Assembly: GCA_034679465.1 (NCBI GenBank)
Contig: JAXDAV010000026.1
Span: forward strand, 239-64,238
Direction: 5' to 3'
Source: Candidatus Aminicenantes bacterium
GTDB lineage: Bacteria > Acidobacteriota > Aminicenantia > Aminicenantales > Saccharicenantaceae
Length of the DNA stretch: 64,000 bases
Notes under the pieces: model-generated
What the model saw: only the letters and a program-made list of their open reading frames with translations
The model's database searches: none
Told to the model about the DNA's origin: nothing
In this document: positions 18,849 to 36,068 of the stretch, one piece after another
How positions within the stretch are numbered: the stretch's first letter is position 1
Layout of the letters: each line of letters begins with the position of its first letter
Made by a program: the position numbers and the translations under genes

Positions 18849-21212
18849 ATGAACGAACGCATCGTCCGGCTCAGGAACCAGACGCTCGAAGCCAAGCCGA
18901 CGATCAGCGCCGAGCGGGCCGTGCTCGTCACCGAGTTCTACAAGAGGCCCGAGACCCGCGGCCTGTCGGTGCCGATGCGGCGCGCCCTGGCCTTCCGGCA
19001 CATCCTGGAGAACAAGGCCATCGTCTTCAACGACGGCGAGCTCATCGTCGGCGAACGGGGGCCCGCGCCCAAGGCCACGCCGACCTATCCGGAGGTCTGC
19101 ATCCACTCCCTGCAGGACCTCCGCTACCTCCACGACCGGAAGAAGACGGCCTTCGCCTCGGACGAGGAGACCCGGCGCGTCTACGCCGAGGAGATCATCC
19201 CGTTCTGGCAGGGCCGCTCGCAGCGCGACCGCCTCTTCGCCGCGATGACGAAGGACTGGATCGACGCCTACGAAGCCGGGGTCTTCACCGAGTTCATGGA
19301 ACAGCGCGCCCCGGGCCACACCGTCCTCGACGGCAAGATCTACCGGAAGGGCATGCTCGACTTCAAGAAGGACATCGAGCGGGCCCTGGCGGCGCTCGAT
19401 GTCCTGACCGACCCGGCCGCCTATGACAAGCAGGAGGAGCTCAAGGGCATGGCCGTGTGCGCCGACGCGCTCATCGCCTTCGGCCGCCGCCACGCGGACA
19501 AGGCCCGCGAGCTCGCGGCCGGGGAGAAGGACCCCGTCCGGAAGGGGGAGCTCGAGCGGATCGCCGAGGTCTGCGATCGGGTCCCGGCCGAGGCCCCCCG
19601 CGACTTTTGGGAAGCGCTCCAGATGTACTGGTTCGTCCATCTCGGCGTCATCATCGAGTACAACACCTGGGACTCGTTCAATCCGGGACGCCTCGACCAG
19701 CACCTCCGGCCCTTCTATGAGCGGGGCCTGGCCGACGGCACCCTGACCAAGGATTCGGCCCGGGAGCTGCTGCAGGCCTTCTGGGTCAAGTTCAACAACC
19801 AGCCCGCCCCGCCCAAGGTCGGAGTGACCGCCGAAGAGAGCGGGACCTACACCGACTTCGCCCTGATCAACGTCGGCGGCCTGAAGGAGGACGGGACGGA
19901 CGGCGTCAACGAGCTCAGCTACCTCATCCTCGACGTCATCCAGGAGATGCGCCTCCTCCAGCCGAGCTCGATGGTCCAGATCAGCGCCAAGGGGCCGGAC
20001 GCCTTCCTCCTCCGGGCCCTCGAGATCGTCCGGACGGGCTTCGGCCAGCCTTCGATCTTCAACACCGACGCCATCGTCCAGGAGCTCGTCCGGCAGGGCA
20101 AGTCCGTCGTCGACGCCCGCAACGGCGGCTGCAGCGGCTGCGTCGAAGCCGGGGCCTTCGGCAAGGAGGCCTACATCCTGACGGGCTATTTCAACCTGCC
20201 CAAGGTCTTCGAGATCACCCTGGGAAACGGCGTCGACCCGCGGACCGGGAAGAGGATCGGGCTCGAGACCGGCGACTCCGAGGGGTTCAAGACCTTCGAC
20301 GAGCTGTTCGAGGCCTTCCGGAAGCAGGTCCGCCACTTCGTCGACATCAAGGTCCGCGGCAGCAACGTCATCGAGAGGCTCTACGCGACCTACCTGCCGG
20401 CGCCGTTCCTGTCGGTCCTCGTCGACGACTGCGTCGCGAACGGCAAGGACTACCACGCCGGCGGCGCCCGCTACAACTCGAACTACATCCAGGGCGTCGG
20501 CATGGGCACGATCACGGACGTCCTGAGCGCCGTCCGCTATAACGTCTACGACCACGGCCACTTCACGATGGCCGGGCTCCGCGAGGCGCTGGCCGCGAAC
20601 TTCGCCGGCCACGAGGGCCTGCGTCAGCGCGTCCTCAACCGGACCCCGAAGTTCGGGAACGACGACGATTACGCCGACAGCCTGATGACCCGGGTCTTCG
20701 AGGCCTATTTCGAGGCCGTGGACGGCCGGCCCACGCCGCGCGGCGGCACGTACCGGATCAACCTCCTGCCGACCACCGCCCACATCTATTTCGGCAAGAT
20801 GACGGGGGCCACGGCCGACGGGCGGCTGGCCGGCGACGCGGTCTCCGAAGGCGTTTCACCCGTCCAGGGCGCCGACCGCAAGGGCCCGACGGCGGTCATC
20901 AAATCGCTCGGCAAGATGGACCACATCCGGACGGGCGGCACGCTCCTCAACCAGAAGTTCACGCCCCAGCTCCTCGCGGACGAGACGGGGAGGAGGGGGC
21001 TCAAGGACCTCGTCCGCTCCTATTTCAAGCTCATGGGCCATCACATCCAGTTCAACGTCGTGACCGCCGACCTCCTGCGCACGGCCCAAGCCCAGCCGGA
21101 GAAGTACCGCGACCTGATCGTCCGGGTGGCCGGCTACAGCGACTACTTCGTCGACTGCGGCACCGAGCTCCAGAACGAGATCATCCGCCGCACCGAGCAC
21201 CAAGAGATTTAG
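18849..21212 (+). CDS. Glycyl radical enzyme, PFL2/glycerol-dehydratase/HypD-type (substrate unknown)
   Basis: In-frame part of ORF 18495..21212. ATG 18849 (MNERIVRLRNQ...) lies 2 nt after the activase stop. Thiyl loop GGCSGCVEAG (Cys-x-Glu). C-terminal glycyl radical motif LIVRVAGYSDYF. 787 aa. Confidence 0.9.
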   Translation: MNERIVRLRNQTLEAKPTISAERAVLVTEFYKRPETRGLSVPMRRALAFRHILENKAIVFNDGELIVGERGPAPKATPTYPEVCIHSLQDLRYLHDRKKTAFASDEETRRVYAEEIIPFWQGRSQRDRLFAAMTKDWIDAYEAGVFTEFMEQRAPGHTVLDGKIYRKGMLDFKKDIERALAALDVLTDPAAYDKQEELKGMAVCADALIAFGRRHADKARELAAGEKDPVRKGELERIAEVCDRVPAEAPRDFWEALQMYWFVHLGVIIEYNTWDSFNPGRLDQHLRPFYERGLADGTLTKDSARELLQAFWVKFNNQPAPPKVGVTAEESGTYTDFALINVGGLKEDGTDGVNELSYLILDVIQEMRLLQPSSMVQISAKGPDAFLLRALEIVRTGFGQPSIFNTDAIVQELVRQGKSVVDARNGGCSGCVEAGAFGKEAYILTGYFNLPKVFEITLGNGVDPRTGKRIGLETGDSEGFKTFDELFEAFRKQVRHFVDIKVRGSNVIERLYATYLPAPFLSVLVDDCVANGKDYHAGGARYNSNYIQGVGMGTITDVLSAVRYNVYDHGHFTMAGLREALAANFAGHEGLRQRVLNRTPKFGNDDDYADSLMTRVFEAYFEAVDGRPTPRGGTYRINLLPTTAHIYFGKMTGATADGRLAGDAVSEGVSPVQGADRKGPTAVIKSLGKMDHIRTGGTLLNQKFTPQLLADETGRRGLKDLVRSYFKLMGHHIQFNVVTADLLRTAQAQPEKYRDLIVRVAGYSDYFVDCGTELQNEIIRRTEHQEI

Positions 21213-21637
21213 CTCCTCAGCTTCGCGTCCAGCGTGATCTCCGTCGCGGCCAGGGCCTGCGAGACCGGGCAGCCCTCCTTGGCCGCCCGGGCCGCCTCGA
21301 GAAAATCCGACTCCGCGAGGCCCGGGACCTCGGCCACCGTGTGCAGGGCGATGCTCGTGATCTTGAAGCCCTGGCCGGCGGGCTCGATCCGGACGTCGGC
21401 CGTGGTCTCGATCCTCTTCGGGGGCGTCTTCCGACCGCCCAGCGCCAACGCCAGGGCCATCGAGAAACAGCCGGCGTGGGCGGCGCCGATGAGCTCCTCG
21501 GGATTGGTCCCCGGGCCGCTCTCGAAGCGGGAGGAGGCCGAATAAGGGCCTTCAAAGAGGCCGCTCTCCACCTTGACCGTCCCCCGGCCCTCGCGGAAAG
21601 AGCCCTCCCAGACCGCGGATCCTTTGCGAATTGGCAT
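21209..21637 (-). CDS. osmC: OsmC peroxiredoxin
   Basis: Close match by eye to the OsmC pattern (WEGSFREGRGTV...GTNPEELIGAAHAGCFSMALALALG). 142 aa. Its stop overlaps the GRE stop (TTAG). Confidence 0.85.
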   Translation of the reverse strand: MPIRKGSAVWEGSFREGRGTVKVESGLFEGPYSASSRFESGPGTNPEELIGAAHAGCFSMALALALGGRKTPPKRIETTADVRIEPAGQGFKITSIALHTVAEVPGLAESDFLEAARAAKEGCPVSQALAATEITLDAKLRS

Positions 21638-23127: not shown

Positions 23128-23631
23128 ATGAGCCCGTCCCTGGCCGAGATCTTCCGCCGCGAGAAGGACGCCGAGTCCTTCCGCCTCGCGGTCACGGCCC
23201 TCGGCGGCGATTTCCCGTTCTCGAGCGCCGACATGATCGAGCTCGGCGCGGCCTACTTCGAGCGCTTCCCGGACCGGGCCCGGGAGCGGAACGCCGAGGA
23301 GGTCCTGCGGGGCTACGCGACCGCCCGGGTCGCCATCATCGAGAAGGCCCTGCTCGCCGTCGACGCGTTCCGGCGGGAGGCCTACCGGGCCATGCTCAGT
23401 GACGTGGCCCGGGTCGGTCCGTCGATCGAGGCGCTCCTGGCCGCCTCCGGGCCGGACGCCCTCCTGGCCGAGCACGACGCGCTCCTGGCCGCCCTGACCG
23501 CCCTGAAGACGACCATCGACGAGATCCCCAAAAGCATGATCAAGGAGCGATTCGTCGGCGGCATCGCCAATCTATTCAATATCTTGTACGTCATCAAAAT
23601 GAGGCTCCGAAGGGCTTTACAAGAACCTTGA
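23128..23631 (+). CDS. Hypothetical helical protein
   Basis: 167-aa ORF with normal codon and amino-acid usage, 43 bp after the receiver gene. No motif recognised. Confidence 0.5.
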   Translation: MSPSLAEIFRREKDAESFRLAVTALGGDFPFSSADMIELGAAYFERFPDRARERNAEEVLRGYATARVAIIEKALLAVDAFRREAYRAMLSDVARVGPSIEALLAASGPDALLAEHDALLAALTALKTTIDEIPKSMIKERFVGGIANLFNILYVIKMRLRRALQEP

Positions 23632-23656
23632 CATCTGGTATCCTATCCTCTAGATA
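23628..23656 (+). promoter_or_regulatory. Candidate sigma70 promoter of the hydrogenase operon (TTGACA-17 nt-TAGATA)
   Basis: TTGACA at 23628-23633, 17-nt spacer, TAGATA at 23651-23656. Overlaps the last codons of the upstream ORF. Leaves a leader of about 140 nt before ATG 23803. Confidence 0.45.
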
Positions 23657-23802
23657 AATCCCTGCGCGGCTGACGGGATAGAACCGCCTGTCAACTCCAC
23701 CCCTTTCCCCGAAAGGGTGTCGAGCCTCGTCCGCCGCGCAACGGTCCGGTGGCGGCCCGCCGGCTGGGGAGATCCGGGCCAACGCGTCGAGGAGCATGAG
23801 GC
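23657..23802 (+). ncRNA. Structured 5' leader, possible Moco/Tuco-type riboswitch
   Basis: GC-rich leader upstream of a molybdopterin enzyme. Blocks CCGCCUGUCAACUCC, CCCCGAAAGGGUG (GNRA hairpin) and GCCUCG resemble, from memory, the E. coli moaA Moco RNA (CCUGGGUCAACUG ... GCCUCC ... GGAAAGGUG). CCGCC (23685) and GGCGG (23751) could pair over long range. Not verifiable without a covariance model. Confidence 0.3.
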
Positions 23803-25764
23803 ATGAGCACTCACACGGGCGTCTGCAACTTCTGCGGGACCGGATGCGGCCAGCGGCTCGAGGTCGGGGACGGCGCCGTCCGGGGCGTCTTCGCCCACCC
23901 CGGCCACCCCGTCAGCCGCGGCCGGCTGTGCGTCCGGGGCTGGCACATCCACGAGCTCCTGGCGACCGAAGAGAGGATCACGAGCCCCCTCGTCCGCCGC
24001 GACGGCCGGCTCGAACCGGTCTCCTACGATGACGCCGTGGCCCACGCCGCCGAACGCCTGTCCCGCTGGAGCGGCGACGAGATCGCCTTCCTGGCCTCGC
24101 CGCGGGCCTCGAACGAGGACGGCTACCTCATGGCCAAGCTGGCCCGGACGGTCTTCAAGTCCCCCCACATCGCCCTGTCCTCGGACCAGGGCCACGGCGA
24201 CGCGGCCGACGTCCTGCTCGAGGGCGCCGGGGCGCCGGCCATGCTCGGCGCGCTGACCGAGGTCCGCAAGGCCCGGCTCCTCCTGGTCGTCGGGGGGGAC
24301 ATCGCCCGGCTCAATCCCATCGTCGGGAGCGAGATCCATCGCGCCGCCCGCGGCGGCGCCGACCTGATCACGTTGAGCAGCCGGTCCACCCAGATGTCCA
24401 AGCTCAGCGGCACGCACCTCTGGACGAGGCCGGGGGGCCTGCGTCACGCCCTCGCGGCCGCGGCCAAGGTCCTGGTCGGGCGGGGCTGGCAGGACGCCGC
24501 CTTCCTCAGGGACCGGGCCGAGGGCTTTGAGGAATTCGCCCGCTCCCTCGAGGGCCTGGACCCCGCCGCGCTCACGGCCGCGGCCGGCCTGACGCCCGCC
24601 GAGATCGAGGACCTGGCCCGGCGCCTCGCCCAGGCCCCGAGCGCCATGGCGTTCTTCACCTCGGGGATCGCCGGCCTCGACCGGGCCTCGACCGCCCTTC
24701 TCTTCGACCTCTTCCTGGCCGCCGGCAAGATCGGCCGCGAAGGCTGCGGCGTCAATCCCGTCACCGGGATCTGCAATATCGTCGGCGGCTATGACGTCGG
24801 CGCCTCCCCCCGCTTCCTCGCCGGCCACCGGCGGGCCGAGGGCGCGGCCGCCGGGCGTACCCCGCGGGAGCTCCTCGCCGCCGAGCCGTCGCCCCTCAAG
24901 GCCCTGGTCGTGGCCGACCGCGACGAGGAGATCGTCCGGCACGCGGCCGGGCTCAAGGGACTCGAATGCGTGGTCTATGTCGGGGCCTATGCCAACCCGT
25001 TCACGGACTTCGCTCACATCGTCCTGCCGTCGGCCACCCACGCCGAGGCCGACGGGACCTATACCAACGCCGAGCGGAGGATCCAGCTCAACCGCAAGAG
25101 AATCGAGCCTCCTCCGGGGGTCCGTCCGGCCTGGCGCGTCTACGCCGACATCGCCGCCCGGCGCGGCGCTTCGTGGGCCCTCCCGTCGGCCGAGGCGGTC
25201 ATGGCCGAGATCGCCGCCGCCGTGCCCGCCTACGCCGCGGTCACCTACGCCAAGCTCGAACAGGGCTTCGGCCTGCAGTGGCCCTGTGACGCGGCCCGCC
25301 CGTCCGGCACGGTCCGCCTGCCCGCCGCCGGCGACGCGGGGCGGCGCCTCCGGTTCGTCCCCGCCGGCGCGGACCTCGCCGCGCCCGCCCCCTCGGCGTC
25401 CTATCCCTTCCTGCTCATGGCCGGCAAGGCCAACTACTTCTGGCACCGCAACGCCATCATGAAGAAGACCCAGATCCCCAAGCGGGAATACAACGCCCTG
25501 CTCCTCCTCTATCCGCGGGGCTTCGTCGAGATCGCGGCCCCCGACGCGAAAGAGCTCGGCGTCCGGGACCGTGCGCCGGTCAAGGTCGTCGCGGCCGGCG
25601 GCTCGATGCGGGTCGCCGTCCGGATCTCCGGGGACGTCAGGCCGGGAACGGTCTACGCGCCCTACTTCATCGAGGATATGGTGCCCGGCTTCCTGAACGC
25701 CGGCGGCGCCGCGATCGACGAGGACCAGGATTCCGCGATCCCCGTGCGGATCGAAAAGGTGTGA
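23803..25764 (+). CDS. Molybdopterin (MopB-family) oxidoreductase subunit, FdhF/FdhH-like but non-canonical
   Basis: N-terminal 4Fe-4S motif VCNFCGTGCG...LCVRGW. Collinear by eye with E. coli FdhF. Gly130 (GGC 24190-24192) sits where Sec140 is expected and Thr321 where Arg333 is expected. No in-frame TGA. Confidence 0.8.
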   Translation: MSTHTGVCNFCGTGCGQRLEVGDGAVRGVFAHPGHPVSRGRLCVRGWHIHELLATEERITSPLVRRDGRLEPVSYDDAVAHAAERLSRWSGDEIAFLASPRASNEDGYLMAKLARTVFKSPHIALSSDQGHGDAADVLLEGAGAPAMLGALTEVRKARLLLVVGGDIARLNPIVGSEIHRAARGGADLITLSSRSTQMSKLSGTHLWTRPGGLRHALAAAAKVLVGRGWQDAAFLRDRAEGFEEFARSLEGLDPAALTAAAGLTPAEIEDLARRLAQAPSAMAFFTSGIAGLDRASTALLFDLFLAAGKIGREGCGVNPVTGICNIVGGYDVGASPRFLAGHRRAEGAAAGRTPRELLAAEPSPLKALVVADRDEEIVRHAAGLKGLECVVYVGAYANPFTDFAHIVLPSATHAEADGTYTNAERRIQLNRKRIEPPPGVRPAWRVYADIAARRGASWALPSAEAVMAEIAAAVPAYAAVTYAKLEQGFGLQWPCDAARPSGTVRLPAAGDAGRRLRFVPAGADLAAPAPSASYPFLLMAGKANYFWHRNAIMKKTQIPKREYNALLLLYPRGFVEIAAPDAKELGVRDRAPVKVVAAGGSMRVAVRISGDVRPGTVYAPYFIEDMVPGFLNAGGAAIDEDQDSAIPVRIEKV

Positions 25765-25766
25765 CC

Positions 25767-26834
25767 ATGTTCATCATGCCCCAGAGCCAGGCCCGGGCCC
25801 TCGCCGCCGCGCTCGCCGAGGACCACGACCTTTACGGCCCCGTCCTCCCGGAGGACGCCGGCGAGCCGATGTTCGAGCGGGCGGACGACCCGGCCGCGAT
25901 CCATCTGGACGCCGCGATCCCCTACAACCCGCCGAAGTCCGCCGTCTTCCCCCAGTCCGAGCGGATCCTGTCCTACCGCTATGACCGGGAGGCCCGGCGG
26001 GCCTCCATCGTCCGCGACGACCTCGTCCGGCCCAAGGCCCTGGTCGGCATCCGCGCCTGCGACCTCACGGGGCTTCTCTGCCTCGACCGCTTCTTCCTCG
26101 GCCAGGAATACGTCGATGAGGTCTACCGCGACCACCGCAAGAAGATGTTCATCGTCGCCGTGACCTGCGTCCGGCCGTTCCCCCAGTGTTTCTGCGTCTG
26201 CACCGACAGCGGGCCGGCGCCGCGGGAAGGCTACGACGTCGCCCTGACCGCGGTCGGCGACGACTACCTCTTTGAGGCCGGGAGCGAAAAGGGAGAGGCC
26301 CTGGCCCGCCGGCTCGGCCTGAAGGCGGCCGGCCCGGGCGCCGCGGCGCTCAAGGCCAAGACGGTCGACGCCTCGATCGCCCGCTTCGACGCCGAGGCCA
26401 CCGAGAACAAGGCCTGGATCTCGCGGGTCATGAACCGGATCACCACGGGCTTCATCGGCAACGACGTCTGGGAATACATCGGCGACCAGTGCTTCGAGTG
26501 CGGGGCCTGCGCCTTCGTCTGTCCGACCTGCTCCTGCTTCAATATCGAGGACGTCAACACCCGCGGGGGCGGGACCGACCGGATGCGGTCCTGGGATTCC
26601 TGTTCCTTCGAGGGCTACACGCGGATGGCCGGCGACCACAATCCCCGCCGCCCGGTCGAGGACCGGAGGAACAAGCGCTTCTTCTGCAAGCTGTCCTATT
26701 CCCAATCCAAGAAATACCTCAGGCCGGGGTGCGTCGGCTGCGGCCGCTGCAACCGGGTCTGCCCGGGCGACATCGGCATCGCCAACGTCGTCACCACCAT
26801 CCGGCGGGAGATCACCAAGGCAGGTGCGAAATGA
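25767..26834 (+). CDS. Fe-S subunit, AsrA / sulfhydrogenase-beta-like (two 4Fe-4S motifs)
   Basis: CFECGACAFVCPTCSCF and CVGCGRCNRVCPGD motifs. Starts 3 nt after the MopB stop (GTG 25761 or ATG 25767). Overlaps the next gene by ATGA. Confidence 0.75.
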   Translation: MFIMPQSQARALAAALAEDHDLYGPVLPEDAGEPMFERADDPAAIHLDAAIPYNPPKSAVFPQSERILSYRYDREARRASIVRDDLVRPKALVGIRACDLTGLLCLDRFFLGQEYVDEVYRDHRKKMFIVAVTCVRPFPQCFCVCTDSGPAPREGYDVALTAVGDDYLFEAGSEKGEALARRLGLKAAGPGAAALKAKTVDASIARFDAEATENKAWISRVMNRITTGFIGNDVWEYIGDQCFECGACAFVCPTCSCFNIEDVNTRGGGTDRMRSWDSCSFEGYTRMAGDHNPRRPVEDRRNKRFFCKLSYSQSKKYLRPGCVGCGRCNRVCPGDIGIANVVTTIRREITKAGAK

Positions 26835-27673
26835 GCGAAGCGCGCGCCGGGGCCATCGTCACCGTCCCCGAGGTCGCCGTCATCGACGAGATCCGCGACG
26901 AGATCGAGGACGTCCGGACGTTCTACTTCTCGTTCGAGGACCCCGCGGTCGCCCGGAGCTTCCGGATCAAGTCGGGCCAGTTCGTCATGTGCACGGTCTT
27001 CGGGGCCGGCGAGTTCGCCGTCTCCCTGCCCTTCAGCCCGGAGGGCGACCGTCCCCACCTCTCCGTCCGCCAAGTCGGCAAGGTCACCCGGGCCCTCCAT
27101 GAGCTCCGGGCCGGGGACAAGATCGGGATCCGGGGGCCCTTCGGCAACGGCTTCCCGTTCGAGGCCATCAAGGGCCGGAACGTCATCTATGTCGCCGGCG
27201 GCATCGGGCTCATCCCGCTCCGCTCGTCCATCGTCCACGTCCTCCAGCACCGGCGGGACTTCGGCCGGATCGTGCTCATCTACGGCTCCCGGTCGTCGAG
27301 GGAGCTGATGTACCGCGACATGATCGAGCGCTGGCGGGCCACCGAGGGCTTCGAGACCTATTTCACCGTCGACCGGCCCGAGCCGGGCTGGACGGGCCCC
27401 GTCGGCTTCGTCCACACGCTCGTCGGCCCGGCCCAGGTCCCGGTCGAGAACACGGTCGCCTTCGTCTGCGGCCCGCCGGTCATGTTCAACTCGGTCATCA
27501 AGGAGCTCCTGGCCGCCGGCCTCAAGGACGAGGCCATCATCTCGACCCTCGAGCGGCACATGAAGTGCGGCATCGGCAAGTGCCAGCATTGCGCCATCGG
27601 GCGGACCCTCGTCTGCACGGACGGCCCGGTCTATACCTACAAGCAGATCAAGACGCTGGGGGAGCAGATATGA
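26831..27673 (+). CDS. FAD/NAD(P)-binding + 2Fe-2S subunit, AsrB / sulfhydrogenase-gamma / PyrK-like
   Basis: In-frame part of ORF 26489..27673, start ATG 26831. Ferredoxin-reductase-type fold (IKSGQFVM, GPFGNGF, VAGGIGLIPL). C-terminal cluster motif HMKCGIGKCQHCAIG...VCTDGP. Confidence 0.75.
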   Translation: MSEARAGAIVTVPEVAVIDEIRDEIEDVRTFYFSFEDPAVARSFRIKSGQFVMCTVFGAGEFAVSLPFSPEGDRPHLSVRQVGKVTRALHELRAGDKIGIRGPFGNGFPFEAIKGRNVIYVAGGIGLIPLRSSIVHVLQHRRDFGRIVLIYGSRSSRELMYRDMIERWRATEGFETYFTVDRPEPGWTGPVGFVHTLVGPAQVPVENTVAFVCGPPVMFNSVIKELLAAGLKDEAIISTLERHMKCGIGKCQHCAIGRTLVCTDGPVYTYKQIKTLGEQI

Positions 27674-28176
27674 CCTTCGGCCCGTCCGACCTCGCCGATC
27701 TCCTTCAGGAGCCGACCTGCCTCGTCGGCGTCGGCAATCCCCTGCGGCGCGACGACGGCGTCGGCCCCTGGATCGTCGCCGCCGTCCGGGCGGCCGTCGA
27801 CGGGACGGGACTGGACCTCGTCGACGCGCAGGACGTCCCGGAGAACTTCGTCCCCTCGATCGCCCGCGGCGATTGCCGGAACGTCGTCTTCGTCGACGCC
27901 GCGGCCGCCGCCGGGACGCCGGGGACGGTCATCTTCGGCCCCCTGGCCGATTTCGCCGAAGCCGGGAGCTTCTCGACCCACAAGCTCGCCCTCTCGCTCA
28001 GCGGCAAGTTCCTCGAAGCCGCCGGGAAGAAGGTCTTCCTGCTCGGCATCGTCCCCGCCGACATCGATTTCGGCGAGGGGCTCACGCCCGCGGTGGCCCA
28101 GGCCGCGGCCGCGCTCCGCGACCTCATCCTCGGCTCGTGCGACCTGGCCCGCCTGGAGAAACGCCATGACCGCTGA
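27670..28176 (+). CDS. hycI: [NiFe]-hydrogenase maturation endopeptidase (HycI-type)
   Basis: LVGVGNPLRRDDGVGPWI signature. 168 aa. ATGA overlap with the upstream gene. Confidence 0.8.
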   Translation: MTFGPSDLADLLQEPTCLVGVGNPLRRDDGVGPWIVAAVRAAVDGTGLDLVDAQDVPENFVPSIARGDCRNVVFVDAAAAAGTPGTVIFGPLADFAEAGSFSTHKLALSLSGKFLEAAGKKVFLLGIVPADIDFGEGLTPAVAQAAAALRDLILGSCDLARLEKRHDR

Positions 28177-30025
28177 TCTCTTCACCCGCCTCTTCGCCGG
28201 CTTCGGGGTCCTGGCCGCCGCCGCCGTCGTGTCGCCCCTCCTGGCCCGGTCGCGGAGGACCGCCGGCCTCGTCCATCTCGGCCTCGTTTCCGTCTCGGCG
28301 GTCCTGCTGCTCACGGTGAGCTTCGAGGCCCTGTTCGGCGGCGCGGGCCACGCCTCCCGGGCGATCGCCCTCGGCGGGCTCTCCGTCCCCTTCCTCGTCG
28401 ACGGCCTCTCCGGGCTCTTCCTGGCCCTCATCGCCTTCATGGCCGTGATGAGCGCGATCTATTCCGTCCGCTATATGGACCATTACCCGGACTACGGCCT
28501 GGGCGGCTATGTCCTCTGCTTCCCTCTCTTCATCCTGGGCATGGCCGCGCTCGTCACCGTGGACGACCTGGCCCTCGGCTTCACCCTGGCCTGGCAGATC
28601 ATGACCGTCGCCTCCTTTGTTCTCGTCCGTTTCGAGCGCCGGAAGGCGGAGAACCGGCGGAGCGCCGCGAAGTACCTCGTCCTCATGGAGCTGGCCTGGC
28701 TGCTCGTCGTGGCCGGGGCCTTCTTCGTCCGGGGCTACGAGCCCGGCGCGCCCCTGGCCGAGATCGCGGCCGGGCTGGGCGCGACGGACGGCCTGCCGCT
28801 CGTCGGCTTCCTGGCCTTCCTCCTCGTCGGCTTCGGCCTGAAGGCCGGCGTCTGGCCCCTCGGCCAGCTCTGGCTGCCCGACGCCCACTCGATCGCCCCG
28901 TCGCCGGTGAGCGCTCTCCTGAGCGGCGTCATGCTCAAGACCGGGATCTACGGACTCTTGAGGACCTTCCTGTTCATGACCCCGGCGGCGAACCCCGCCT
29001 TCGACGGCGGGACCTGGGGCCTCATCCTGGCCGCGATCGGTGCGGCGACGCTCCTCATCGGCACGATCCAGTCGATGAAGCAGAGCGACGCGAAACGGCT
29101 CCTGGCCTACAGCTCGATCGGCCAGATCGGCTACATCGTCCTGGCCGCGGGGGCGGTCCTCTATCTGGGGACGACGGGCCATCCGGCCCTGCGGGCCCTG
29201 GCCGTCGCGGCCGTCATCGGGGCCCTGTTCCATGTCCTCAACCACGCCATCTTCAAAGGCCTGCTGTTCCTCACGAGCGGCAGCATCCTCTACGCCACCG
29301 GGACCAAGGACCTCAACAGGCTCGGCGGGCTCATCCGCCTGATGCCGGTGAGCGCCGTCATCGCCGGGATCGCCTCGCTCGCCATCTCGGGCCTGCCGCC
29401 CTTCAGCGGCTTCGCCAGCAAATGGACGATCATCTCCAGCTCGCTCCTGGCCGGGGACGCGACCGTCCTTCTGGTCCTCTTCGGCATCATCGCCCTGTTC
29501 ACGAGCGCCGTGACCCTGGCCTGCTACGTCAAGTTCTTCGGCATGGCCTTCACCTCGGCCGGCTCCGAGTGGAACGTCGGGAAGACGGTCCGCGAGGTCC
29601 CGGTCTCGATGCTCGCCCCCAAGATCGTCCTGGCCGCCGTCGCGCTCGCCCAGGGGCTCTTCCCGGTCCTCTCGGTCGGGCTCGTCCTGACCGCCCTGCG
29701 GAGGTCCGAGGGCTTCCTGCTCGCCGGCGACGTCGCCGCCTCGAGCGGTCCTGTCGCGGCCTCGATCGGGGGGGTCCGCCTGACGGGTCTCAACGGTCTG
29801 CCGCTCAACGCGGCCGCCGCGCCGCTCGTCGTCCTGCTCGTCCTCGGCCTGGGCCTCGCGATCGGGGCCCTGCTGCGGAGGTCGGGCGGCTCGAAGGAAG
29901 TCGAGGCGCCCACCTGGCTCTGCGGCTACCAGAGCCTCAACGACGCCAACCGGTACGCGGACCGGAGCATGTTCGCCGCCCTGCGGGGCCTGTTCAAGCT
30001 CGCCGGCGGAAAGAGCGGCAAGTAG
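28166..30025 (+). CDS. hycC: Antiporter-like membrane subunit (HycC/HyfB, NuoL/M/N family)
   Basis: 619-aa polytopic protein with the NuoL/M-type core (LPDAHSIAPSPVSALLSGVMLKTGIYGLLR, AYSSIGQIGYI). Confidence 0.85.
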   Translation: MTADLFTRLFAGFGVLAAAAVVSPLLARSRRTAGLVHLGLVSVSAVLLLTVSFEALFGGAGHASRAIALGGLSVPFLVDGLSGLFLALIAFMAVMSAIYSVRYMDHYPDYGLGGYVLCFPLFILGMAALVTVDDLALGFTLAWQIMTVASFVLVRFERRKAENRRSAAKYLVLMELAWLLVVAGAFFVRGYEPGAPLAEIAAGLGATDGLPLVGFLAFLLVGFGLKAGVWPLGQLWLPDAHSIAPSPVSALLSGVMLKTGIYGLLRTFLFMTPAANPAFDGGTWGLILAAIGAATLLIGTIQSMKQSDAKRLLAYSSIGQIGYIVLAAGAVLYLGTTGHPALRALAVAAVIGALFHVLNHAIFKGLLFLTSGSILYATGTKDLNRLGGLIRLMPVSAVIAGIASLAISGLPPFSGFASKWTIISSSLLAGDATVLLVLFGIIALFTSAVTLACYVKFFGMAFTSAGSEWNVGKTVREVPVSMLAPKIVLAAVALAQGLFPVLSVGLVLTALRRSEGFLLAGDVAASSGPVAASIGGVRLTGLNGLPLNAAAAPLVVLLVLGLGLAIGALLRRSGGSKEVEAPTWLCGYQSLNDANRYADRSMFAALRGLFKLAGGKSGK

Positions 30026-30037
30026 GGAGAGATTCGC

Positions 30038-31723
30038 ATGGACGCCATCGCCCGGATCGCCAACGAGCTCAGGGCCCGCTTCGGCCCCGACATCCAGGGG
30101 GTCGAGTCGCCGTCCCCGACCAGGCTCTTCGTCGACATCGACCGCCGGGCCCTGCGCGGCGCCGCCCAGGCCCTGGTCGACCTCGGGGCCCGCTACATGG
30201 TCGGCATCGGCACCGACGAGATCGCCCGCCGCGGCCGGCTCGGGCTCATCCACACCTTCGCCTTCGACGCGGACCACGTCGGCGTGGCCCTGCGCTCCTC
30301 CGCCCCGGCCGGCGACCCGGTGTTCGAGTCCATCACGCCCGCCATCCCCAGCGCCGGCTGGACGGAGCGGGAATACCGGGACCTGCTCGGGATGACCTTC
30401 ACCGGGCACCCCAAGCCGAAACGGCTCATCCTGGCCGACGACTGGCCGGACGGCGTCCACCCCCTGCGCAAGGACGTCCCCTACAACCTCGTGCCCCCGG
30501 CCGCCGAGGACGTCGCCTACCGGCTCGACGAGGCCCCGCCCGGGACGACGACCGTGCCCATCGGGCCCTTCCATGTCAGCCTCCACGAGCCCGAGCATTT
30601 CGCCGTCTTCGTCGACGGCGAGACGATCAAGGGCTGCGACTACCGCGGCTTCATGACCCACCGGGGCATCGAGAAGCTTTGCCAGACCCAGGTCAGCTAC
30701 AACGAGGTCCCCTTCGTCGCCGAGCGGATCTGCGGCATCTGCGGCTCGGTCCACGCCGTCTGCTACGCCCAGGCGGTCGAGGCGGCCGCGGGCCTCCGGA
30801 TCTCGCGGCGGTCCGAATACATCCGGACCGTCCTGCTCGAGATCGAGCGCCTCCACTCCCACCTCCTCTGGCTCGGCATCGCCGGCCATCTCATCGGCTT
30901 CGATACGGTCTTCATGCAGGCCTGGCGCGTCCGGGAGAAGGTCATGTGGCTGGCCGAGCGGTTCACCGGCAACCGCAAGACCTACGGCATGGTCCTCATC
31001 GGCGGCGTCCGCCGCGACATCACGCCTGAGATCCGGGCCGACCTGGAGGCCCTCCTCACGACCCTGGAGAAGGAGGTCCTGGTCCTCAAGAACGCGGTCA
31101 TCGGCGACACGGCCATCCATCGCCGGACGAAGGGCGTCGGCTTTCTGTCGAAGGAGGAAACGGTCCGCTGGAGCCTCATCGGCCCCGTGGCCCGGGCCCG
31201 CGGCCTCGGTCTCGACGTCCGCAAGGACCACCCCTACGCGGCCTACGACGACCTGGCCTTCGACGTCCCGGTCGTCGATTCCGGCGACGTCTGGGGGACC
31301 CTGGTCGTCCGGGTCCTCGAGATCTTCGAGTCCATCGCCATCCTGCGCCAGGCCCTGGCCAAGATGCCGGCCGACGGGCCGCTCCTCATCGAGGTCCCCG
31401 AGGCCCTGCCGGCCCTCCGCCACGGCCTGTCCATGGTCGAGGCGCCCCGCGGCGAATCGGTCCACTACGTCATCACCGGCGAGGAGAACCGGCCCGAGCG
31501 CTGGCGCGTCCGCGCTCCGACCTACGCGAACCTGCAGGCCGTGCCGGCGATGCTCCTCGACAACCAGTTCGCCGATTTCCCCATCATCCTGGGCCAGATC
31601 GATCCGTGCTTCTCCTGCACCGATCGCGTGGCGGTCATCGACGCCCGGTCGGGCCGCCGGCGCGTCCTCGACCGGGCGGCGCTCGAGGGCCTGTCGCGAC
31701 GGCCCGCGGGCGGGAGGAGCTGA
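30038..31723 (+). CDS. hycE: Group 4 [NiFe]-hydrogenase large subunit fused to NuoC-like domain (HycE-type)
   Basis: N-terminal NuoC-like domain of about 150 aa. L1 motif RICGICGSVH. L2 motif DPCFSCTDR, followed by a C-terminal extension of about 31 aa, as expected for HycI processing. Confidence 0.9.
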   Translation: MDAIARIANELRARFGPDIQGVESPSPTRLFVDIDRRALRGAAQALVDLGARYMVGIGTDEIARRGRLGLIHTFAFDADHVGVALRSSAPAGDPVFESITPAIPSAGWTEREYRDLLGMTFTGHPKPKRLILADDWPDGVHPLRKDVPYNLVPPAAEDVAYRLDEAPPGTTTVPIGPFHVSLHEPEHFAVFVDGETIKGCDYRGFMTHRGIEKLCQTQVSYNEVPFVAERICGICGSVHAVCYAQAVEAAAGLRISRRSEYIRTVLLEIERLHSHLLWLGIAGHLIGFDTVFMQAWRVREKVMWLAERFTGNRKTYGMVLIGGVRRDITPEIRADLEALLTTLEKEVLVLKNAVIGDTAIHRRTKGVGFLSKEETVRWSLIGPVARARGLGLDVRKDHPYAAYDDLAFDVPVVDSGDVWGTLVVRVLEIFESIAILRQALAKMPADGPLLIEVPEALPALRHGLSMVEAPRGESVHYVITGEENRPERWRVRAPTYANLQAVPAMLLDNQFADFPIILGQIDPCFSCTDRVAVIDARSGRRRVLDRAALEGLSRRPAGGRS

Positions 31724-31725
31724 CC

Positions 31726-32628
31726 ATGAGCGTCGTCGCCGTCTTCGTCAACGTCCTCCTGTTCCTCCTCCTCGCCCCGCTCTTCGAGGGCGTGATGCGG
31801 AAGATCACCGCCCGGGTCCAGTCCCGCCAGGGCCCGCCGGTCGTCCAGCCGTATTATGACCTGCTCAAGCTCCTCGGCAAGGAGCGGATCAACTCGGCCG
31901 GGACTTGGGCCTTCAGGCTGGCCCCGCCGGCCGCGTTCGCCTCGATCCTGGCCGTCGTCGCCCTCGTCCCCTTCGGCTCGAAGCTCAACGCCCTGGGCGG
32001 CCGCGTCGACGCCGTCACCGTCATCTATCTGCTGACGCTCGGCGGCGTCTCCGTCCTCCTCGGGGCCCTGGCCAGCCGCAACACCTTCGCGGCGATCGGG
32101 GCCTCGCGGGAGATGGTGACCATGGTCATGGTCGAGCCCGTCCTGGCCATGACCCTCATCCTCGGCGCCGTCCGGGGCGGGAGCCTGGGGCTGGGCGCGG
32201 CCGTCTTCAGCACCGCCGCGCGGGGCTACAGCGTCGCCACCGCGGTCATGCTCGTCGCCTACCTCCTGGCCCTGCAGGCGTTCGTGGCCAAACAGCCTTT
32301 CGACATCGCCGAGGCCGAGATCGAGATCCTCGAGGGGCCGTTCATCGAGTACAGCGGGCCCGACTACGGCCTGTTCCGCTATTACCTGATGATGAAGCAG
32401 ATGTTCTACGCCTGGCTCTTCGTCGCCGTCTTCCTGCCCTTCCTCCGGACGGGCGCGTACGCCGGCGACGTCCTGGCCCAGCTGGCCGGGACCTTCATCG
32501 TCTTCGTCCTCATCGCCGTGGTCGGATCGACCAACCCGCGCCTGCGGATCGACCAGGCCGTCAAGATCTACGCCGTCCTCGTCCTCGTCGCGCTCGGCGC
32601 GGTCGGGCTGGCCGTCGCGGGAATCTGA
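31726..32628 (+). CDS. hycD: Membrane subunit HycD (NuoH-like)
   Basis: In-frame part of ORF 31606..32628, start ATG 31726 (MSVVAVFVNVLLFLLLAPLFEGVMRKITARVQSRQGPP, the typical NuoH/HycD N-terminus). Confidence 0.85.
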   Translation: MSVVAVFVNVLLFLLLAPLFEGVMRKITARVQSRQGPPVVQPYYDLLKLLGKERINSAGTWAFRLAPPAAFASILAVVALVPFGSKLNALGGRVDAVTVIYLLTLGGVSVLLGALASRNTFAAIGASREMVTMVMVEPVLAMTLILGAVRGGSLGLGAAVFSTAARGYSVATAVMLVAYLLALQAFVAKQPFDIAEAEIEILEGPFIEYSGPDYGLFRYYLMMKQMFYAWLFVAVFLPFLRTGAYAGDVLAQLAGTFIVFVLIAVVGSTNPRLRIDQAVKIYAVLVLVALGAVGLAVAGI

Positions 32629-32650
32629 GGGAGAGCGGGGGAGAAGCGCC

Positions 32651-33196
32651 ATGTGGCTCATCAGCAAGATCAAACAGCTCCTCTTGGTCTCGAAGCCGGG
32701 GGTCGTCACCCTGAAGTACCCCTTCGAGCCCCGGCCGGCCCCGGAGGGCTTCCGCGGCGCCCCGCACTGGGACCACACCAAGTGCGTCGGCTGCGCCGGC
32801 TGCGCCGAGCACTGCCCGGCCCGGACGATCATGGTCCGGGACCTCTGCCAGGAGATCCGGGTGCTCCTCTACGACGGGGCCCGCTGCACCTACTGCGGCC
32901 GCTGCGCCGACGTCTGCCCCGAGAAGGCCATCGCCATGACCCCCCGGTTCGAACAGGCGACCGAGGACCGGAACGACATCACCGAAACGCTCGAGCTCTT
33001 CATGCTCACCTGCCAGCGCTGCGGCCGCTGCTACGACATGGAGACGACCAACGCCGTCGACAGGCTCGGCCTGACCGGCTACCGCTACGACAGCCTCGAG
33101 GCCCGGACGGTCATCCGCCGGGCGACCGACACCTTCCAGCCGGGCGAGCTCCGGACGACCGAGCGCTACGAGCGGCCGACAGAGACAGGAGACTGA
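32651..33196 (+). CDS. hycF: 2x[4Fe-4S] subunit HycF (NuoI-like)
   Basis: CVGCAGCAEHCP and CTYCGRCADVCP motifs, plus CQRCGRC. 181 aa. Confidence 0.85.
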   Translation: MWLISKIKQLLLVSKPGVVTLKYPFEPRPAPEGFRGAPHWDHTKCVGCAGCAEHCPARTIMVRDLCQEIRVLLYDGARCTYCGRCADVCPEKAIAMTPRFEQATEDRNDITETLELFMLTCQRCGRCYDMETTNAVDRLGLTGYRYDSLEARTVIRRATDTFQPGELRTTERYERPTETGD

Positions 33197-33198
33197 CC

Positions 33199-33729
33199 AT
33201 GCTGGGTCCGATCGCCAGGAAGTGCTTCCCCCGCTCGCTCTGGGTCTACCACTGCAACAGCGGCGCCTGCAACGGCTGTGACATCGAGGTCCTGAACATC
33301 CTGACGCCCTACTATGACGTCGAGCGGTTCGGCATCAAGCTGGTCGGATCGCCGCGCCACGCCGACGTCATGCTCCTCTCGGGCGCCGTCACCCGGCCGA
33401 CCCTGCCCCTGGTCAAGAGGGCCTACGCGGCCATGCCCGGCCCCAAGCTCGTCTTCGGCATCGGGTCCTGCGCCACGGGCGGCGGCTGCTGGTTCGACAC
33501 CTACAACGTCAGCGGCGGCGGGGCCGCGGCCGTCCCGGTCGATTACTTCATCCCCGGCTGCCCGCCGCGGCCGGAAGCGATCATCTACGGCGTCGCCCTG
33601 GCCCTCGGCCTGGTCGACAAGAAGGCCGCGCCGGTCGAGCTGAAGCAGGTCGAGTTCCCGATCGACATGTACGAGCGGAACAAGGCCTGGGAGGACCGGA
33701 ACGTCATCTACGAGGTCTTGAACAAATGA
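33199..33729 (+). CDS. hycG: [NiFe]-hydrogenase small subunit HycG (NuoB-like)
   Basis: In-frame part of ORF 32653..33729, start ATG 33199. CNSGACNGCDIE, GSPRHADVMLLSG, GSCATGGGCW, IPGCPPRPE. Confidence 0.9.
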   Translation: MLGPIARKCFPRSLWVYHCNSGACNGCDIEVLNILTPYYDVERFGIKLVGSPRHADVMLLSGAVTRPTLPLVKRAYAAMPGPKLVFGIGSCATGGGCWFDTYNVSGGGAAAVPVDYFIPGCPPRPEAIIYGVALALGLVDKKAAPVELKQVEFPIDMYERNKAWEDRNVIYEVLNK

Positions 33730-34130
33730 ACAAGAAGATCCTCATCGTCGACGACGACCGGGACCTCGTCGCCAGCCTGGCCCAGGTCATGAAGGGGAGC
33801 GGCTACGACGTCGCGGCCGCGCACAGCGGGGCGGACGGCCTCAAGGCCGTGCTGGCCGAGCGGCCCGACCTGGTCATCCTCGACGTCATGATGGAGACGG
33901 ACACGGCCGGGTTCGAGGCGGCCGGCGTCATCCGCAGCCGCCGCGAGACGTCCAAGTACCGGGCCTTCCGCGACGTGCCCATCATCATCCTGACGGCCAT
34001 CGACCAGGTGACCAATTCGCGCTTCTCGATGGACCCGTCCGACAGCTTCCTCCCGGGAACGAACGAGTTCCTGACCAAGCCGGTCGACCTCGACGAGCTG
34101 CTGGCCACGATCGGCCGCGCCCTGCGATGA
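33726..34130 (+). CDS. Single-domain response regulator (receiver)
   Basis: KKILIVDDDRDL...DLVILDVMMETDTAG...PIIILTA...KP. ATGA overlap with the hycG stop and with the downstream kinase start. Confidence 0.85.
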   Translation: MNKKILIVDDDRDLVASLAQVMKGSGYDVAAAHSGADGLKAVLAERPDLVILDVMMETDTAGFEAAGVIRSRRETSKYRAFRDVPIIILTAIDQVTNSRFSMDPSDSFLPGTNEFLTKPVDLDELLATIGRALR

Positions 34131-36049
34131 TCCAGTCCCTCCTCCGCTCGAACATCCGCTTCAAGCTGGTCATCAGCCTGCTCGGCATCGTCTTCCTGGC
34201 CGGCATCCTGTCGATCCTCGTCGGCCTCAACGCCCTCAACACCAACCTCGTCCGCGACGCCTACGCCACGGTCCGGACGAACTTGGCCTCGGCGAGCGAG
34301 CTGTACCGGGAGGAGACCGACAACCGGTCGAGGATCATCCAGTACCTGGCCCAGACCCCGGAGATCGTCCGGGCCGCCGCCGCCGGGGACCGGGCCGCGC
34401 TCTTCGGCGAGCTCGTTCAGATCCAGCGGGAGTTCGGGTTCGACATCGTCGACGTCGTCCGGACCGACGGGACCATGCTCGTCCGGGCCAACAACTTCGA
34501 GACCTTCGGCGACAGCATGACCGGCTACCGGACGATCCAGGAGGTCCTGCGGACGCACGGCCCCATCGCCGGGACCGGGATCCTCCAGTACGAAGACATC
34601 GCCTTGGAGGGCGGCGACCTGGCCGTCCGGACGGTCATCCCGGTGGTCCCGACCTCCCACGCCCGGTCCCGGCCGTCGCCGGTCGAAAACCGGGCCCTGG
34701 TCATCAAGATCGCCGCCCCCATCCTCGACGGAGACCGGTTCCTGGGCATCCTCTATGCCGCCGTGCTCCTCAACAACAATTCCGACTTCGTCGACCGCTT
34801 CAAGCGGCTGGTCTTCAAGGACGAGAAGATCGACGGCAAGGACGCCGGGACGACGACCGTCTTCCTCGGCGACGTCCGCGTGGCCACGAACGTCGTCGAC
34901 GCGGCCGGCCGGCGGGCCGTCGGCACGCAGGTCTCGGAGGAGGTCTACCGGAAGGTCTTCGAGAAGGGGGAGACCTGGGTCGGCAAGGCCTTCGTCGTCG
35001 ACGACTGGTACATCTCCGGCTACATCCCGCTCTACGACTTCGACCAGGAGATCCTGGGCCTGCTCTACGTCGGGGTCCTGAAGAAGAAGTTCGACGTCGT
35101 CGTCCGCAACACGACCATCTCCTATCTCCTGGTCATCGCCGTGTCGACCGTCCTGGCGCTTCTCCTTTCGGGCTACCTCATCGCCCTCTACACCAAGCCG
35201 GTCAAGCGGATCATCGACGCCTCGACCGAGATGGCCCTGGGCTTCTACCACCGCATCGAGGTCGACCCGCACGACGACGAGGACGCCCGGGCCCTCGGCC
35301 AGGCCTTCAACGGCATGGTCGACGCCATCGAGGAGCGCGACCGCCAGCTGACCGAGCTGGCCGACCGGACCATCCTCAAGTCCGAGAAGCTGGCCTCGAT
35401 CGGGCGGATGGCCTCGGGCATCGCCCACGAGATCAACAACCCCTTGACCGGCGTCCTGACCTACAGCAGCCTCCTCCTCGAGGACATGAAGGGCACGCCC
35501 TACGAAGAGGATCTCAGGGTCATCCGCGACGAGACGCTGCGCTGCCGGGCCATCGTCCGCGGCATCCTCGACTTCGCCCGGGACTCCAAGCCCGAGCGGG
35601 TCCTGTCCGACCTCAACGCCATCATCGAGGAGAGCCTGCGGATCCTGGAGAAGCACGTCACCTTTCAGAACATCCGGATCGTCAAGGCCCTGGGCCCGAA
35701 CCTGCCCTGGGTCAGCGTGGACGCCGGCGAGATCCGGTCGGTCATCAACAATCTGGCCATGAACGCCGCCGACGCCATGCCCGACGGCGGGCAGCTGGCC
35801 CTGACGACCTCGGTCGAGCCGGAGTCGGGGCGGGTCGTCTTGAGCATCGCCGACACGGGCCACGGCATCAGCGAGGAGAACCTGAACAAGATCTTCGAGC
35901 CCTTCTTCACGACCAAGGACCGGGGCCAGGGGACGGGCCTGGGACTGCCCATGGTCTACGGCGCCATCCAGCGGCACGGCGGCGAGATCGACGTCAAGAG
36001 CCGGGTCGGGGCGGGCACGGAGTTCATCATCAAGCTGCCGACCGGGTGA
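34127..36049 (+). CDS. Sensor histidine kinase with periplasmic Cache-like domain, HAMP, HisKA, HATPase
   Basis: TM1 (LVISLLGIVFLAGILSILVGL), extracytoplasmic domain of about 280 aa, TM2, HAMP. H-box SGIAHEINNPL. N, G1 and G2 boxes (NLAMNAADAM, DTGHGI, GTGLGL). Confidence 0.85.
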   Translation: MIQSLLRSNIRFKLVISLLGIVFLAGILSILVGLNALNTNLVRDAYATVRTNLASASELYREETDNRSRIIQYLAQTPEIVRAAAAGDRAALFGELVQIQREFGFDIVDVVRTDGTMLVRANNFETFGDSMTGYRTIQEVLRTHGPIAGTGILQYEDIALEGGDLAVRTVIPVVPTSHARSRPSPVENRALVIKIAAPILDGDRFLGILYAAVLLNNNSDFVDRFKRLVFKDEKIDGKDAGTTTVFLGDVRVATNVVDAAGRRAVGTQVSEEVYRKVFEKGETWVGKAFVVDDWYISGYIPLYDFDQEILGLLYVGVLKKKFDVVVRNTTISYLLVIAVSTVLALLLSGYLIALYTKPVKRIIDASTEMALGFYHRIEVDPHDDEDARALGQAFNGMVDAIEERDRQLTELADRTILKSEKLASIGRMASGIAHEINNPLTGVLTYSSLLLEDMKGTPYEEDLRVIRDETLRCRAIVRGILDFARDSKPERVLSDLNAIIEESLRILEKHVTFQNIRIVKALGPNLPWVSVDAGEIRSVINNLAMNAADAMPDGGQLALTTSVEPESGRVVLSIADTGHGISEENLNKIFEPFFTTKDRGQGTGLGLPMVYGAIQRHGGEIDVKSRVGAGTEFIIKLPTG

Positions 36050-36068
36050 GGCGGCGGGAGAGAGCGAC

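Follow-up and report, generated by a model that had tools for sequence, protein, structure and literature searches.

Formate hydrogenlyase (FHL) of Escherichia coli, made up of hydrogenase 3 (Hyd-3, HycBCDEFG) and the formate dehydrogenase (Fdh) FdhF (PDB 7Z0S/7Z0T), together with hydrogenase 4 (Hyd-4, Hyf) and HydDB group 4a, provided the comparison for a nine-gene operon in a 64,000-nucleotide (nt) stretch of DNA from a Candidatus Aminicenantes bacterium (GenBank assembly GCA_034679465.1, contig JAXDAV010000026.1, positions 239 to 64,238 of the forward strand), hereafter called the window. A second comparison was with the Pyrococcus furiosus sulfhydrogenase SHI (group 3b, PDB 9NEZ) and the anaerobic sulfite reductase proteins AsrAB, whose beta and gamma subunits are homologous to two proteins of the operon and have the same cofactor motifs. 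Mixed arrangements have been described from genomes: about half of the Fdh subunits in 'Group 4b' clusters lack Cys or selenocysteine (Sec), and those clusters carry SHI-gamma and SHI-beta homologues, for which a coupling of H2, NADP(H) and an unidentified substrate, with an AlphaFold-based SHI-gamma/NADPH branch, was suggested (Takano 2026, PMC13582414). Likewise, a group 4 region of Saganbacteria RX5A encodes an unclassifiable molybdopterin oxidoreductase, cooF, asrA, asrB and Mrp-like subunits (Matheus Carnevali 2019, PMC6349859). In the operon studied here, the FdhF/HycB input pair of a Hyc-type hydrogenase appears to be replaced by a sulfhydrogenase-type beta/gamma diaphorase and a degenerate Fdh-like protein, which suggests a membrane-coupled hydrogenase linked to NAD(P)(H) rather than to formate.

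The nine genes are co-directional on the forward strand, and the identities assigned to them in an earlier reading of the sequence (the original prediction) were all upheld by Pfam and NCBIfam. They encode, in order, a protein with the Fdh-derived molybdopterin-oxidoreductase fold (here called MopB; 23803-25764; Pfam Molybdop_Fe4S4, Molybdopterin and Molydop_binding), a multi-[4Fe-4S] beta subunit resembling SHI-beta, HydB and AsrA (25761-26834; Pfam Fer4_22), a gamma subunit resembling SHI-gamma, HydG, AsrB and PyrK (26831-27673; FAD_binding_6, NAD_binding_1 and DHODB_Fe-S_bind), a HycI-type maturation endopeptidase (27670-28176; PF01750, and TIGR00072 at 99.7 bits, above the cutoff), a single HycC/HyfB-like antiporter-like membrane subunit (28166-30025; Proton_antipo_M and Proton_antipo_N), a HycE/HyfG-like [NiFe] large subunit that is a NuoC-NuoD fusion (30038-31723; Complex1_30kDa, NiFeSe_Hases and Complex1_49kDa), the NuoH/ND1-like membrane anchor HycD (31726-32628; PF00146), the NuoI-like HycF with two [4Fe-4S] sites (32651-33196; Pfam/NCBIfam) and the NuoB-like small subunit HycG with the proximal cluster (33199-33729; PF01058). 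The genes are joined successively by 4-nt overlaps reading GTGA, ATGA and ATGA, by an 11-nt overlap and by gaps of 12, 2, 22 and 2 nt. The ATGA overlaps and the gaps of at most 25 nt had thus been described correctly, apart from the one overlap of 11 nt and the one 4-nt overlap that reads GTGA. The start of MopB, which had been placed at 23628, was wrong, because the ATGA at this position closes an upstream open reading frame (ORF, 23128-23631) and lies off the MopB frame; the first MopB start codon is at 23803. All the motifs quoted in the original prediction were found in the translations.

Judged from its sequence, the enzyme is a group 4 membrane-bound [NiFe]-hydrogenase of the Hyc/Hyf type. 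The large subunit is 41% identical to E. coli HycE and 40% to HyfG and is colinear with them, including the NuoC-like N-terminal domain (BLAST and alignment). Its best solved structure is HycE of FHL (7z0s_E, 418 bits, vs 243 bits for P. furiosus MbhL). The motifs RICGICGSVH and DPCFSCTDR align with the Ni-Fe-ligand CxxC motifs of HycE and HyfG and are both conserved in related loci; no Sec variants of the large subunit were seen among the related loci checked. The 31 residues that follow DPCFSCTDR begin after the Arg at which HycI cuts HycE (between DPCFSCTDR and V), and hycI lies in the operon, so this C-terminal tail is a predicted substrate of HycI-type cleavage. Identity to the E. coli proteins is 50% for HycG, 33-37% for HycD and 32-35% for HycF, and the antiporter-like subunit is nearest to HyfB (36%). 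In HycG, which has 176 amino acids (aa) here compared with 255 aa in E. coli, C19, C24, C27, C91 and C121 are at least 95% conserved in the related loci. The E. coli Hyc-like core that had been proposed is therefore borne out, and the operon shares with Hyd-3 and Hyd-4 the HycC/D/E/F/G/I set, one antiporter-like subunit plus HycD, the Ni motifs and the cleavage site, as well as, with FHL, a gene for an Fdh-fold partner protein. It differs from the FHL of E. coli in lacking HycB, HycH and HycA, in the addition of beta and gamma and in the active site of its Fdh-fold protein. A tblastn search with the E. coli proteins (E<=0.01) found no homologue of HycB/HyfA, HycH/HyfJ, HyfE or HycA in any frame of the window, and the gene junctions leave no intergenic room for HycB. 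The reported absence of HycB and HycH thus stands, as does that of hyp genes, none of which was found by Pfam in the other large ORFs of the window.

We next considered the beta and gamma subunits, which had been likened to AsrA/AsrB and to the Pyrococcus sulfhydrogenase. Their best solved structures are indeed the beta and gamma subunits of P. furiosus SHI (9nez_B, 129 bits, with all Cys motifs in common, and 9nez_C, 187 bits). The NCBIfam sulfhydrogenase and AsrA/AsrB models match both subunits below the model cutoffs, with the HydB, ShyB and AsrA models reaching 132-141 bits on beta. In 80 sequences, 17 of the 18 Cys of beta are at least 95% conserved and the remaining one at least 80%. In gamma, the GGxGxxP motif (VAGGIGxIPLRS), the CGPP motif (AFVCGPP) and the four C-terminal [2Fe-2S] Cys are all at least 95% conserved (76 loci). 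The check by alignment therefore came out in favour of the NAD(P)H link that had been proposed, the nucleotide-binding site being kept. SHI pairs its beta and gamma subunits with soluble alpha and delta subunits, whereas here they accompany a membrane-bound group 4 core: neither a group 3 large or small subunit (3b alpha/delta) nor a sulfite-reductase domain (AsrC) was found among the window ORFs scanned by Pfam. A 951-aa protein (P0179) considered as a natural MopB-beta fusion was rejected as a frameshift artefact.

The relationships of MopB, together with the Hyc-like core, would suit a classical FHL, in which MopB oxidises formate and H2 is evolved, since MopB is nearest to formate dehydrogenases: its best solved relatives are the F420-dependent Fdh 9t1s_L (288 bits), 7bkb_D, FdhF of the hydrogen-dependent CO2 reductase (7qv7_S) and FdhH (1aa6), and it matches TIGR01591 (Fdh-alpha). 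The latter match, however, reaches 355 bits against a cutoff of 666, and when MopB is aligned with Fdh structures and with FdhF of E. coli, Gly stands at the position of Sec140 of FdhH and Thr at that of Arg333, while His141 is retained. These losses are general. The Sec/Cys position is occupied by G in 110, W in 4 and R in 2 of 116 database homologues (46-100% identity), and by G in 76 and W in 5 of 81 species-level loci, and in neither set is the Arg333 position ever Arg. By contrast with these active-site residues, the Cys of the N-terminal FS0 [4Fe-4S] cluster (equivalents of FdhF C8, C11, C15 and C42) are kept; every database homologue with a complete N-terminus has them (114-116 of 116), and they are invariant in the 81 loci. 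When MopB was aligned with FdhF, NapA and FdnG of E. coli and with the C-terminal NuoG domain, three motifs common to FdhF, NapA and FdnG proved to be changed as well, GxNxxExHP to G.D..K.NP, TxxR..H.H to AG-K..FWH and xDxxxTET to YxGAYxNPF, the last with an invariant Gly for Asp. MopB is moreover the fastest-evolving redox subunit, with a median identity between the window and Spirochaetota-type loci of 47%, compared to 64-80% for beta, gamma, HycE, HycF and HycG.

Taken from the sequence, formate oxidation by MopB is essentially excluded, and loss of its cofactor is likely. Other features of the window point in the same direction. Besides the missing HycB, no formate channel, FdhD, FdhE or molybdenum cofactor (Moco) genes were found by Pfam in its other large ORFs, and the neighbouring glycyl radical enzyme (18849-21212, + strand), considered as a link to formate, is trans-4-hydroxy-L-proline dehydratase HypD (NF043068, 1276 bits, cutoff 1100) and not pyruvate formate-lyase. 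We thus regard a classical FHL as highly improbable; the original prediction had likewise suggested another function. Its assignment of a MopB-family subunit also holds, while its idea of a Mo/W-dependent substrate is weakened by the loss of Sec/Cys and Arg and by the degenerate pterin motifs. Genes of this type are routinely annotated as 'formate dehydrogenase', and metagenome reconstructions may for this reason wrongly infer a formate hydrogenlyase.

The membrane arm was examined using the residues highlighted in the structure paper on E. coli FHL (PMC9474812). In HycD, little or no variation was seen across 66 loci at the E-channel residues E129, E137, E196, E198, E200, E203 and Y101. In the antiporter-like subunit, K226 in transmembrane helix (TM) 7, K258, H356, H360, K364, D382 and K419 in TM12 are conserved; at TM7, TM12 and TM5 it has Lys, Lys and Gln, compared with Leu, Glu and Glu in E. 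coli HycC. Since the residues of both subunits are kept across about 70 loci, the membrane arm is under strong constraint, although it is no textbook pump.

The nine-gene arrangement is not due to chance. A scan of GTDB species genomes with the MopB alignment gave 146 relatives, from which 80 loci were kept; these are mostly labelled Aminicenantes/Saccharicenans/Acidobacteriota or Spirochaetota/Leptospirales, with some metagenome-assembled genomes (MAGs) labelled otherwise, and include Ca. Saccharicenans subterraneus BY38. Among the 65 loci whose downstream sequence is long enough, 57 have all nine genes in the same order and seven others lack only hycI, so that the synteny expected in related genomes does recur. 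The compact Hyd-3-like gene set was seen in all related loci examined. In one short contig (L076), hycD lies upstream and hycE comes straight after hycI; hence, the association of the genes survives rearrangement. A second Cys-less MopB family, 35% identical to the window protein and with Tyr at the Sec position, has members named Armatimonadota, Omnitrophica, Methylomirabilis and Verrucomicrobia. The four contexts examined for this family (including Armatimonadota, Omnitrophica and Verrucomicrobia) all show the nine-gene order, followed by hypA in three and by hypB in one, and the large subunits from Armatimonadota and Omnitrophica are 53% identical to that of the window, compared to 40% for E. 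coli HycE. Mrp-rich relatives, sought through a distant Cys-less MopB (P0248), were not obtained, as all four contexts proved to be the compact nine-gene operon.

From the gene content, motifs, losses and conservation observed above, we infer a physical assembly, an electron path, a nucleotide preference, a direction and an ion coupling, all of which are proposals. Beta would be the hub in place of HycB and gamma the NAD(P)(H) site, and electrons would pass reversibly from NAD(P)H to the flavin adenine dinucleotide (FAD) and [2Fe-2S] cluster of gamma, through three [4Fe-4S] clusters of beta, to HycF, HycG and the [NiFe] site. MopB would keep only its [4Fe-4S] cluster and serve as a scaffold or side cluster, as does the Fdh-derived C-terminal domain of NuoG in complex I, an evolutionary comparison also made in the structure paper on E. 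coli FHL (PMC9474812). The transfer of electrons from NAD(P)H to H2 is uphill by about 90 mV at standard conditions; therefore, the HycD/HycC arm would either harness the ion-motive force so that these fermenters release H2 from NAD(P)H, or conserve energy in reverse, when H2 reduces NAD(P)+. We give a probability of about 0.55 to this reading, a complex-I-like, NAD(P)(H)-linked, membrane-coupled [NiFe]-hydrogenase with an Fdh relic as scaffold or side cluster. It retains from the original prediction the ion-translocating type of membrane hydrogenase, the NAD(P)(H)-type module and the absence of a classical formate route.

Several points weigh against this reading. Motif erosion in MopB is no proof of cofactor loss, because E. 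coli NapA also lacks the DPR motif, which was dropped as a marker of that loss. MopB is full length in every locus and has many family-invariant residues, and two positions before the lost Sec lies a residue that is always acidic (D in 51, E in 31), so that MopB may have a metal or pterin site of a non-canonical kind and, with it, a third substrate. The sequence of gamma shows no readable preference between NAD and NADP, and it is synteny that suggests the assembly of beta, gamma and MopB onto HycF. Finally, the TM5 Glu of the antiporter-like subunit is replaced by Gln144 in 72 of 72 loci, which makes canonical pumping uncertain.

In the main rival reading, which follows a proposal in Takano 2026, MopB would still be catalytic through a non-canonical metal site, and the enzyme would have three branches and would couple H+/H2 and NAD(P)+/NAD(P)H to a third couple, possibly by con- or bifurcation; in a variant, the third branch would bind ferredoxin. 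The intact MopB and its many invariant residues, the invariant FS0 Cys and the conserved S-[D/E]-x-G-[H/Q] segment, with its always-acidic residue, are consistent with this. Moreover, the canonical Cys and Arg are both kept in only 56 of the 150 best MopB relatives from a search of 1.84 billion representative proteins. As most of these 150 thus lack the pair, Cys-less forms would be a recurrent, maintained state, and the Fdh-like proteins that do not have the canonical active site seem to be both numerous and varied. Many of the remaining proteins among the 150 (P0241-P0389) are about 900 residues long, with N-terminal Fe-S domains. In a published AlphaFold model (Takano 2026, PMC13582414), the network also has arms leading to the large subunit, to SHI-gamma and to the Fdh-like protein. 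On the other hand, MopB has lost both residues for formate-type chemistry, two Rossmann-domain motifs and a domain IV motif are altered, and it evolves faster than all the other redox subunits, while neither a Moco riboswitch (Rfam) nor Moco genes (Pfam, window ORFs) were found. In addition, the sole flavin sits in the PyrK/NfnA-type gamma subunit, and we know of no system of this kind (NfnAB) in which that flavin is the bifurcating site. In summary, a third catalytic branch seems unlikely, and the NAD(P)(H)-linked hydrogenase with an Fdh relic remains our preferred reading, for which the modelled SHI-gamma/NADPH branch of Takano 2026 may count as independent support.

Since that reading places beta in the position of HycB, the surface of HycF that would receive it is of interest. 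Besides its eight canonical Cys, HycF has C66, C121, C124 and C127, all at least 95% conserved in 64 sequences (the window and 63 loci). In the alignment, C121 and C124 correspond to Cys117 and Cys120 of E. coli HycF, which together with C155 and C158 bind one metal ion where that protein contacts FdhF and HycB (PMC9474812). The mononuclear site of E. coli thus contrasts with a family-specific CxxCxxC plus one remote Cys, and these four residues may be compatible with an additional Fe-S cluster at the site of the missing HycB.

The same Cys quartet bears on whether the operon encodes one enzyme or two. A soluble MopB-beta-gamma oxidoreductase could be co-transcribed with an Ech-like hydrogenase fed by free ferredoxin, given that the Hyc core of E. 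coli holds FdhF only loosely (PMC9474812) and that six-subunit Ech-type hydrogenases function without a dedicated input module (HydDB table). However, the nine genes are linked, and mostly translationally coupled, in at least five phyla, the linkage persists in the reordered contig, hycI lies between the two halves, and the quartet of HycF occupies the position at which the E. coli protein touches FdhF and HycB. Translational coupling, the order shared by most related loci and by all four sister contexts, the linkage after rearrangement and hypA following three of those four contexts argue for one functional unit, and we hold two separate enzymes to be quite improbable. In one Armatimonadota MAG (L089), directly upstream of the MopB-beta-gamma-Hyc operon, there is a complete SHI-type operon of group 3b (beta, gamma, delta, alpha and protease, 5296-9901), in a region that also has hypA and a CobW/HypB-like gene. 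The gamma subunit of its 3b operon is 40% identical to that of the window, and the group-4-linked one 54%. As both operons adjoin, this genome would have a soluble and a membrane-bound enzyme with paralogous beta and gamma subunits.

We then compared the operon with the clusters known from other genomes. It shares with those of Takano 2026 (PMC13582414) a Cys/Sec-less Fdh-like protein and SHI-beta and SHI-gamma beside a group 4 hydrogenase, in overlapping phyla (Acidobacteriota, Armatimonadota and Methylomirabilota). The typical cluster of that study, however, includes a HyfE-like subunit along with multiple antiporter and ferredoxin subunits, whereas the operon here has a single antiporter-like subunit, lacks HyfE and has no ferredoxin besides HycF, and is set apart by this described gene content. 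The region of Saganbacteria RX5A likewise differs in having Mrp antiporter-like subunits and cooF, and was likened by its authors to Mbh (PMC6349859). It had been proposed that the idea would fall if this module was already documented in a characterised subgroup. The combination has been described in silico in both studies, but no experimental characterisation of such clusters was found in the literature searched. Hence, on the sequence comparison, the operon is a compact variant of a widespread cluster family noted twice in silico and not a first sighting of it.

The operon continues beyond hycG, at which it had been thought to end. The nine genes are real, but the overlapping co-directional series goes on with a tenth gene for a single-domain response regulator (33726-34130, + strand; PF00072), joined to hycG by an ATGA overlap, and then with genes for a Cache-domain histidine kinase (34127-36049, + strand) and a receiver-kinase hybrid (36069-37166, + strand). 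In nearly all loci from Aminicenantes and Spirochaetota, the gene directly after hycG is this response regulator, with 57-89% identity, and it is more conserved than MopB or HycI. Its DDD motif, phospho-acceptor Asp, Thr and Lys and an insertion are conserved. The nine genes and the response regulator were found together in one Spirochaetota MAG and one Aminicenantes contig, and hypA takes the position of the regulator in three of the four Armatimonadota/Omnitrophica-type loci. The kinase pair (34127-37166) was seen downstream only in the closest Aminicenantes relative among those examined.

Upstream, the ORF that ends in the ATGA at 23628 (orf167; 23128-23631, + strand) is conserved and has no assigned function, with no match in Pfam, NCBIfam or PDB. 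It has homologues in 53 related loci, about 600-750 base pairs (bp) upstream of MopB in Aminicenantes, and its invariant residues include G27, F29, Y43, P48, G62-Y63, R67, E72, E140-R141-F142 and G144-G145. It is possibly an accessory factor, although its membership of the system is uncertain. It was rejected as a substitute for HycH or HycA (hhalign probabilities <1%). Sec read-through from orf167 into MopB, which is in the same frame, was excluded because three stops separate the two, and the alignment of MopB with Fdh begins at the Met of MopB itself. A consensus scan found a promoter-like site at 23616-23644 (+ strand; TTTACA, a 17-nt spacer and TATCCT, with an upstream TG), both hexamer regions of which are conserved in the closest Aminicenantes loci. 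It is followed by a 5′ leader of about 155 nt (23648-23802, + strand) with a predicted 12-bp long-range helix, a 3′ hairpin and then the Shine-Dalgarno sequence GAGGAG. The leader is conserved in an alignment of 16 sequences (the window and 15 loci), and RNAalifold on 11 sequences (the window and 10 loci) gave 26 pairs, only four of them with compensatory changes. The leader had no match to a Moco riboswitch or to any other Rfam family at the gathering thresholds.

Further from the operon, the HypD gene is conserved upstream of it in the closest Aminicenantes loci, and no activase gene was identified adjoining it. Two genes for OsmC-like peroxiredoxins flank the hydrogenase region (21209-21637, - strand, and 37328-37756, + strand), one of which is also found downstream in an Aminicenantes contig (L002). 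A Schlafen-group-3-like helicase gene (38254-40227, + strand) lies in a stretch of lower G+C (about 0.60 vs 0.68) and also follows the operon region in L002. The remainder of the window codes for the catabolism of sugars and pentoses, for peptidases and for regulators (Pfam), and the G+C of the window falls to 0.52 between 62000 and 64000.

The architecture invites comparison with complex I. As in the N-module, a flavoprotein would provide the entry for NAD(P)H, an Fe-S relay would lead into a NuoI/NuoB/NuoD-type module, and an Fdh-fold protein would keep only a [4Fe-4S] site (NuoG/Nqo3). Unlike in complex I, the flavoprotein is of the FNR/PyrK type (FAD) and not NuoF (flavin mononucleotide), and the acceptor would be H+ at the [NiFe] site and not quinone. 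In bit scores, MopB is also far nearer to Fdh (355) than to NuoG (116). We suggest, tentatively and with more doubt than confidence, that the operon is a living analogue of the proposed step from FHL to complex I, in which an Fdh decayed to a NuoG-like cofactor-less scaffold and an NAD(P)H flavoprotein was recruited. If true, it would offer an experimental model for the gain by complex I of its NADH module and of a dead Fdh domain.

The novelty of the locus is limited by the fact that the family is large, conserved and has been outlined in silico twice. To our knowledge, direct use of NAD(P)H is without precedent among the biochemically characterised group 4 hydrogenases. If the operon is indeed such an analogue of the step towards complex I, this would be the first group 4 [NiFe]-hydrogenase that exchanges electrons directly with NAD(P)(H) and is coupled to the membrane potential. 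Its hosts are abundant anaerobes, the Aminicenantes and Spirochaetota, with the sister form in Armatimonadota, Omnitrophica and Verrucomicrobia. Fermenters among them could then vent NAD(P)H as H2 at an ion-motive cost, or gain energy from the H2-dependent reduction of NAD(P)+, and an NAD(P)(H)-linked, membrane-coupled hydrogenase would give them a new means of redox balancing without electron confurcation.

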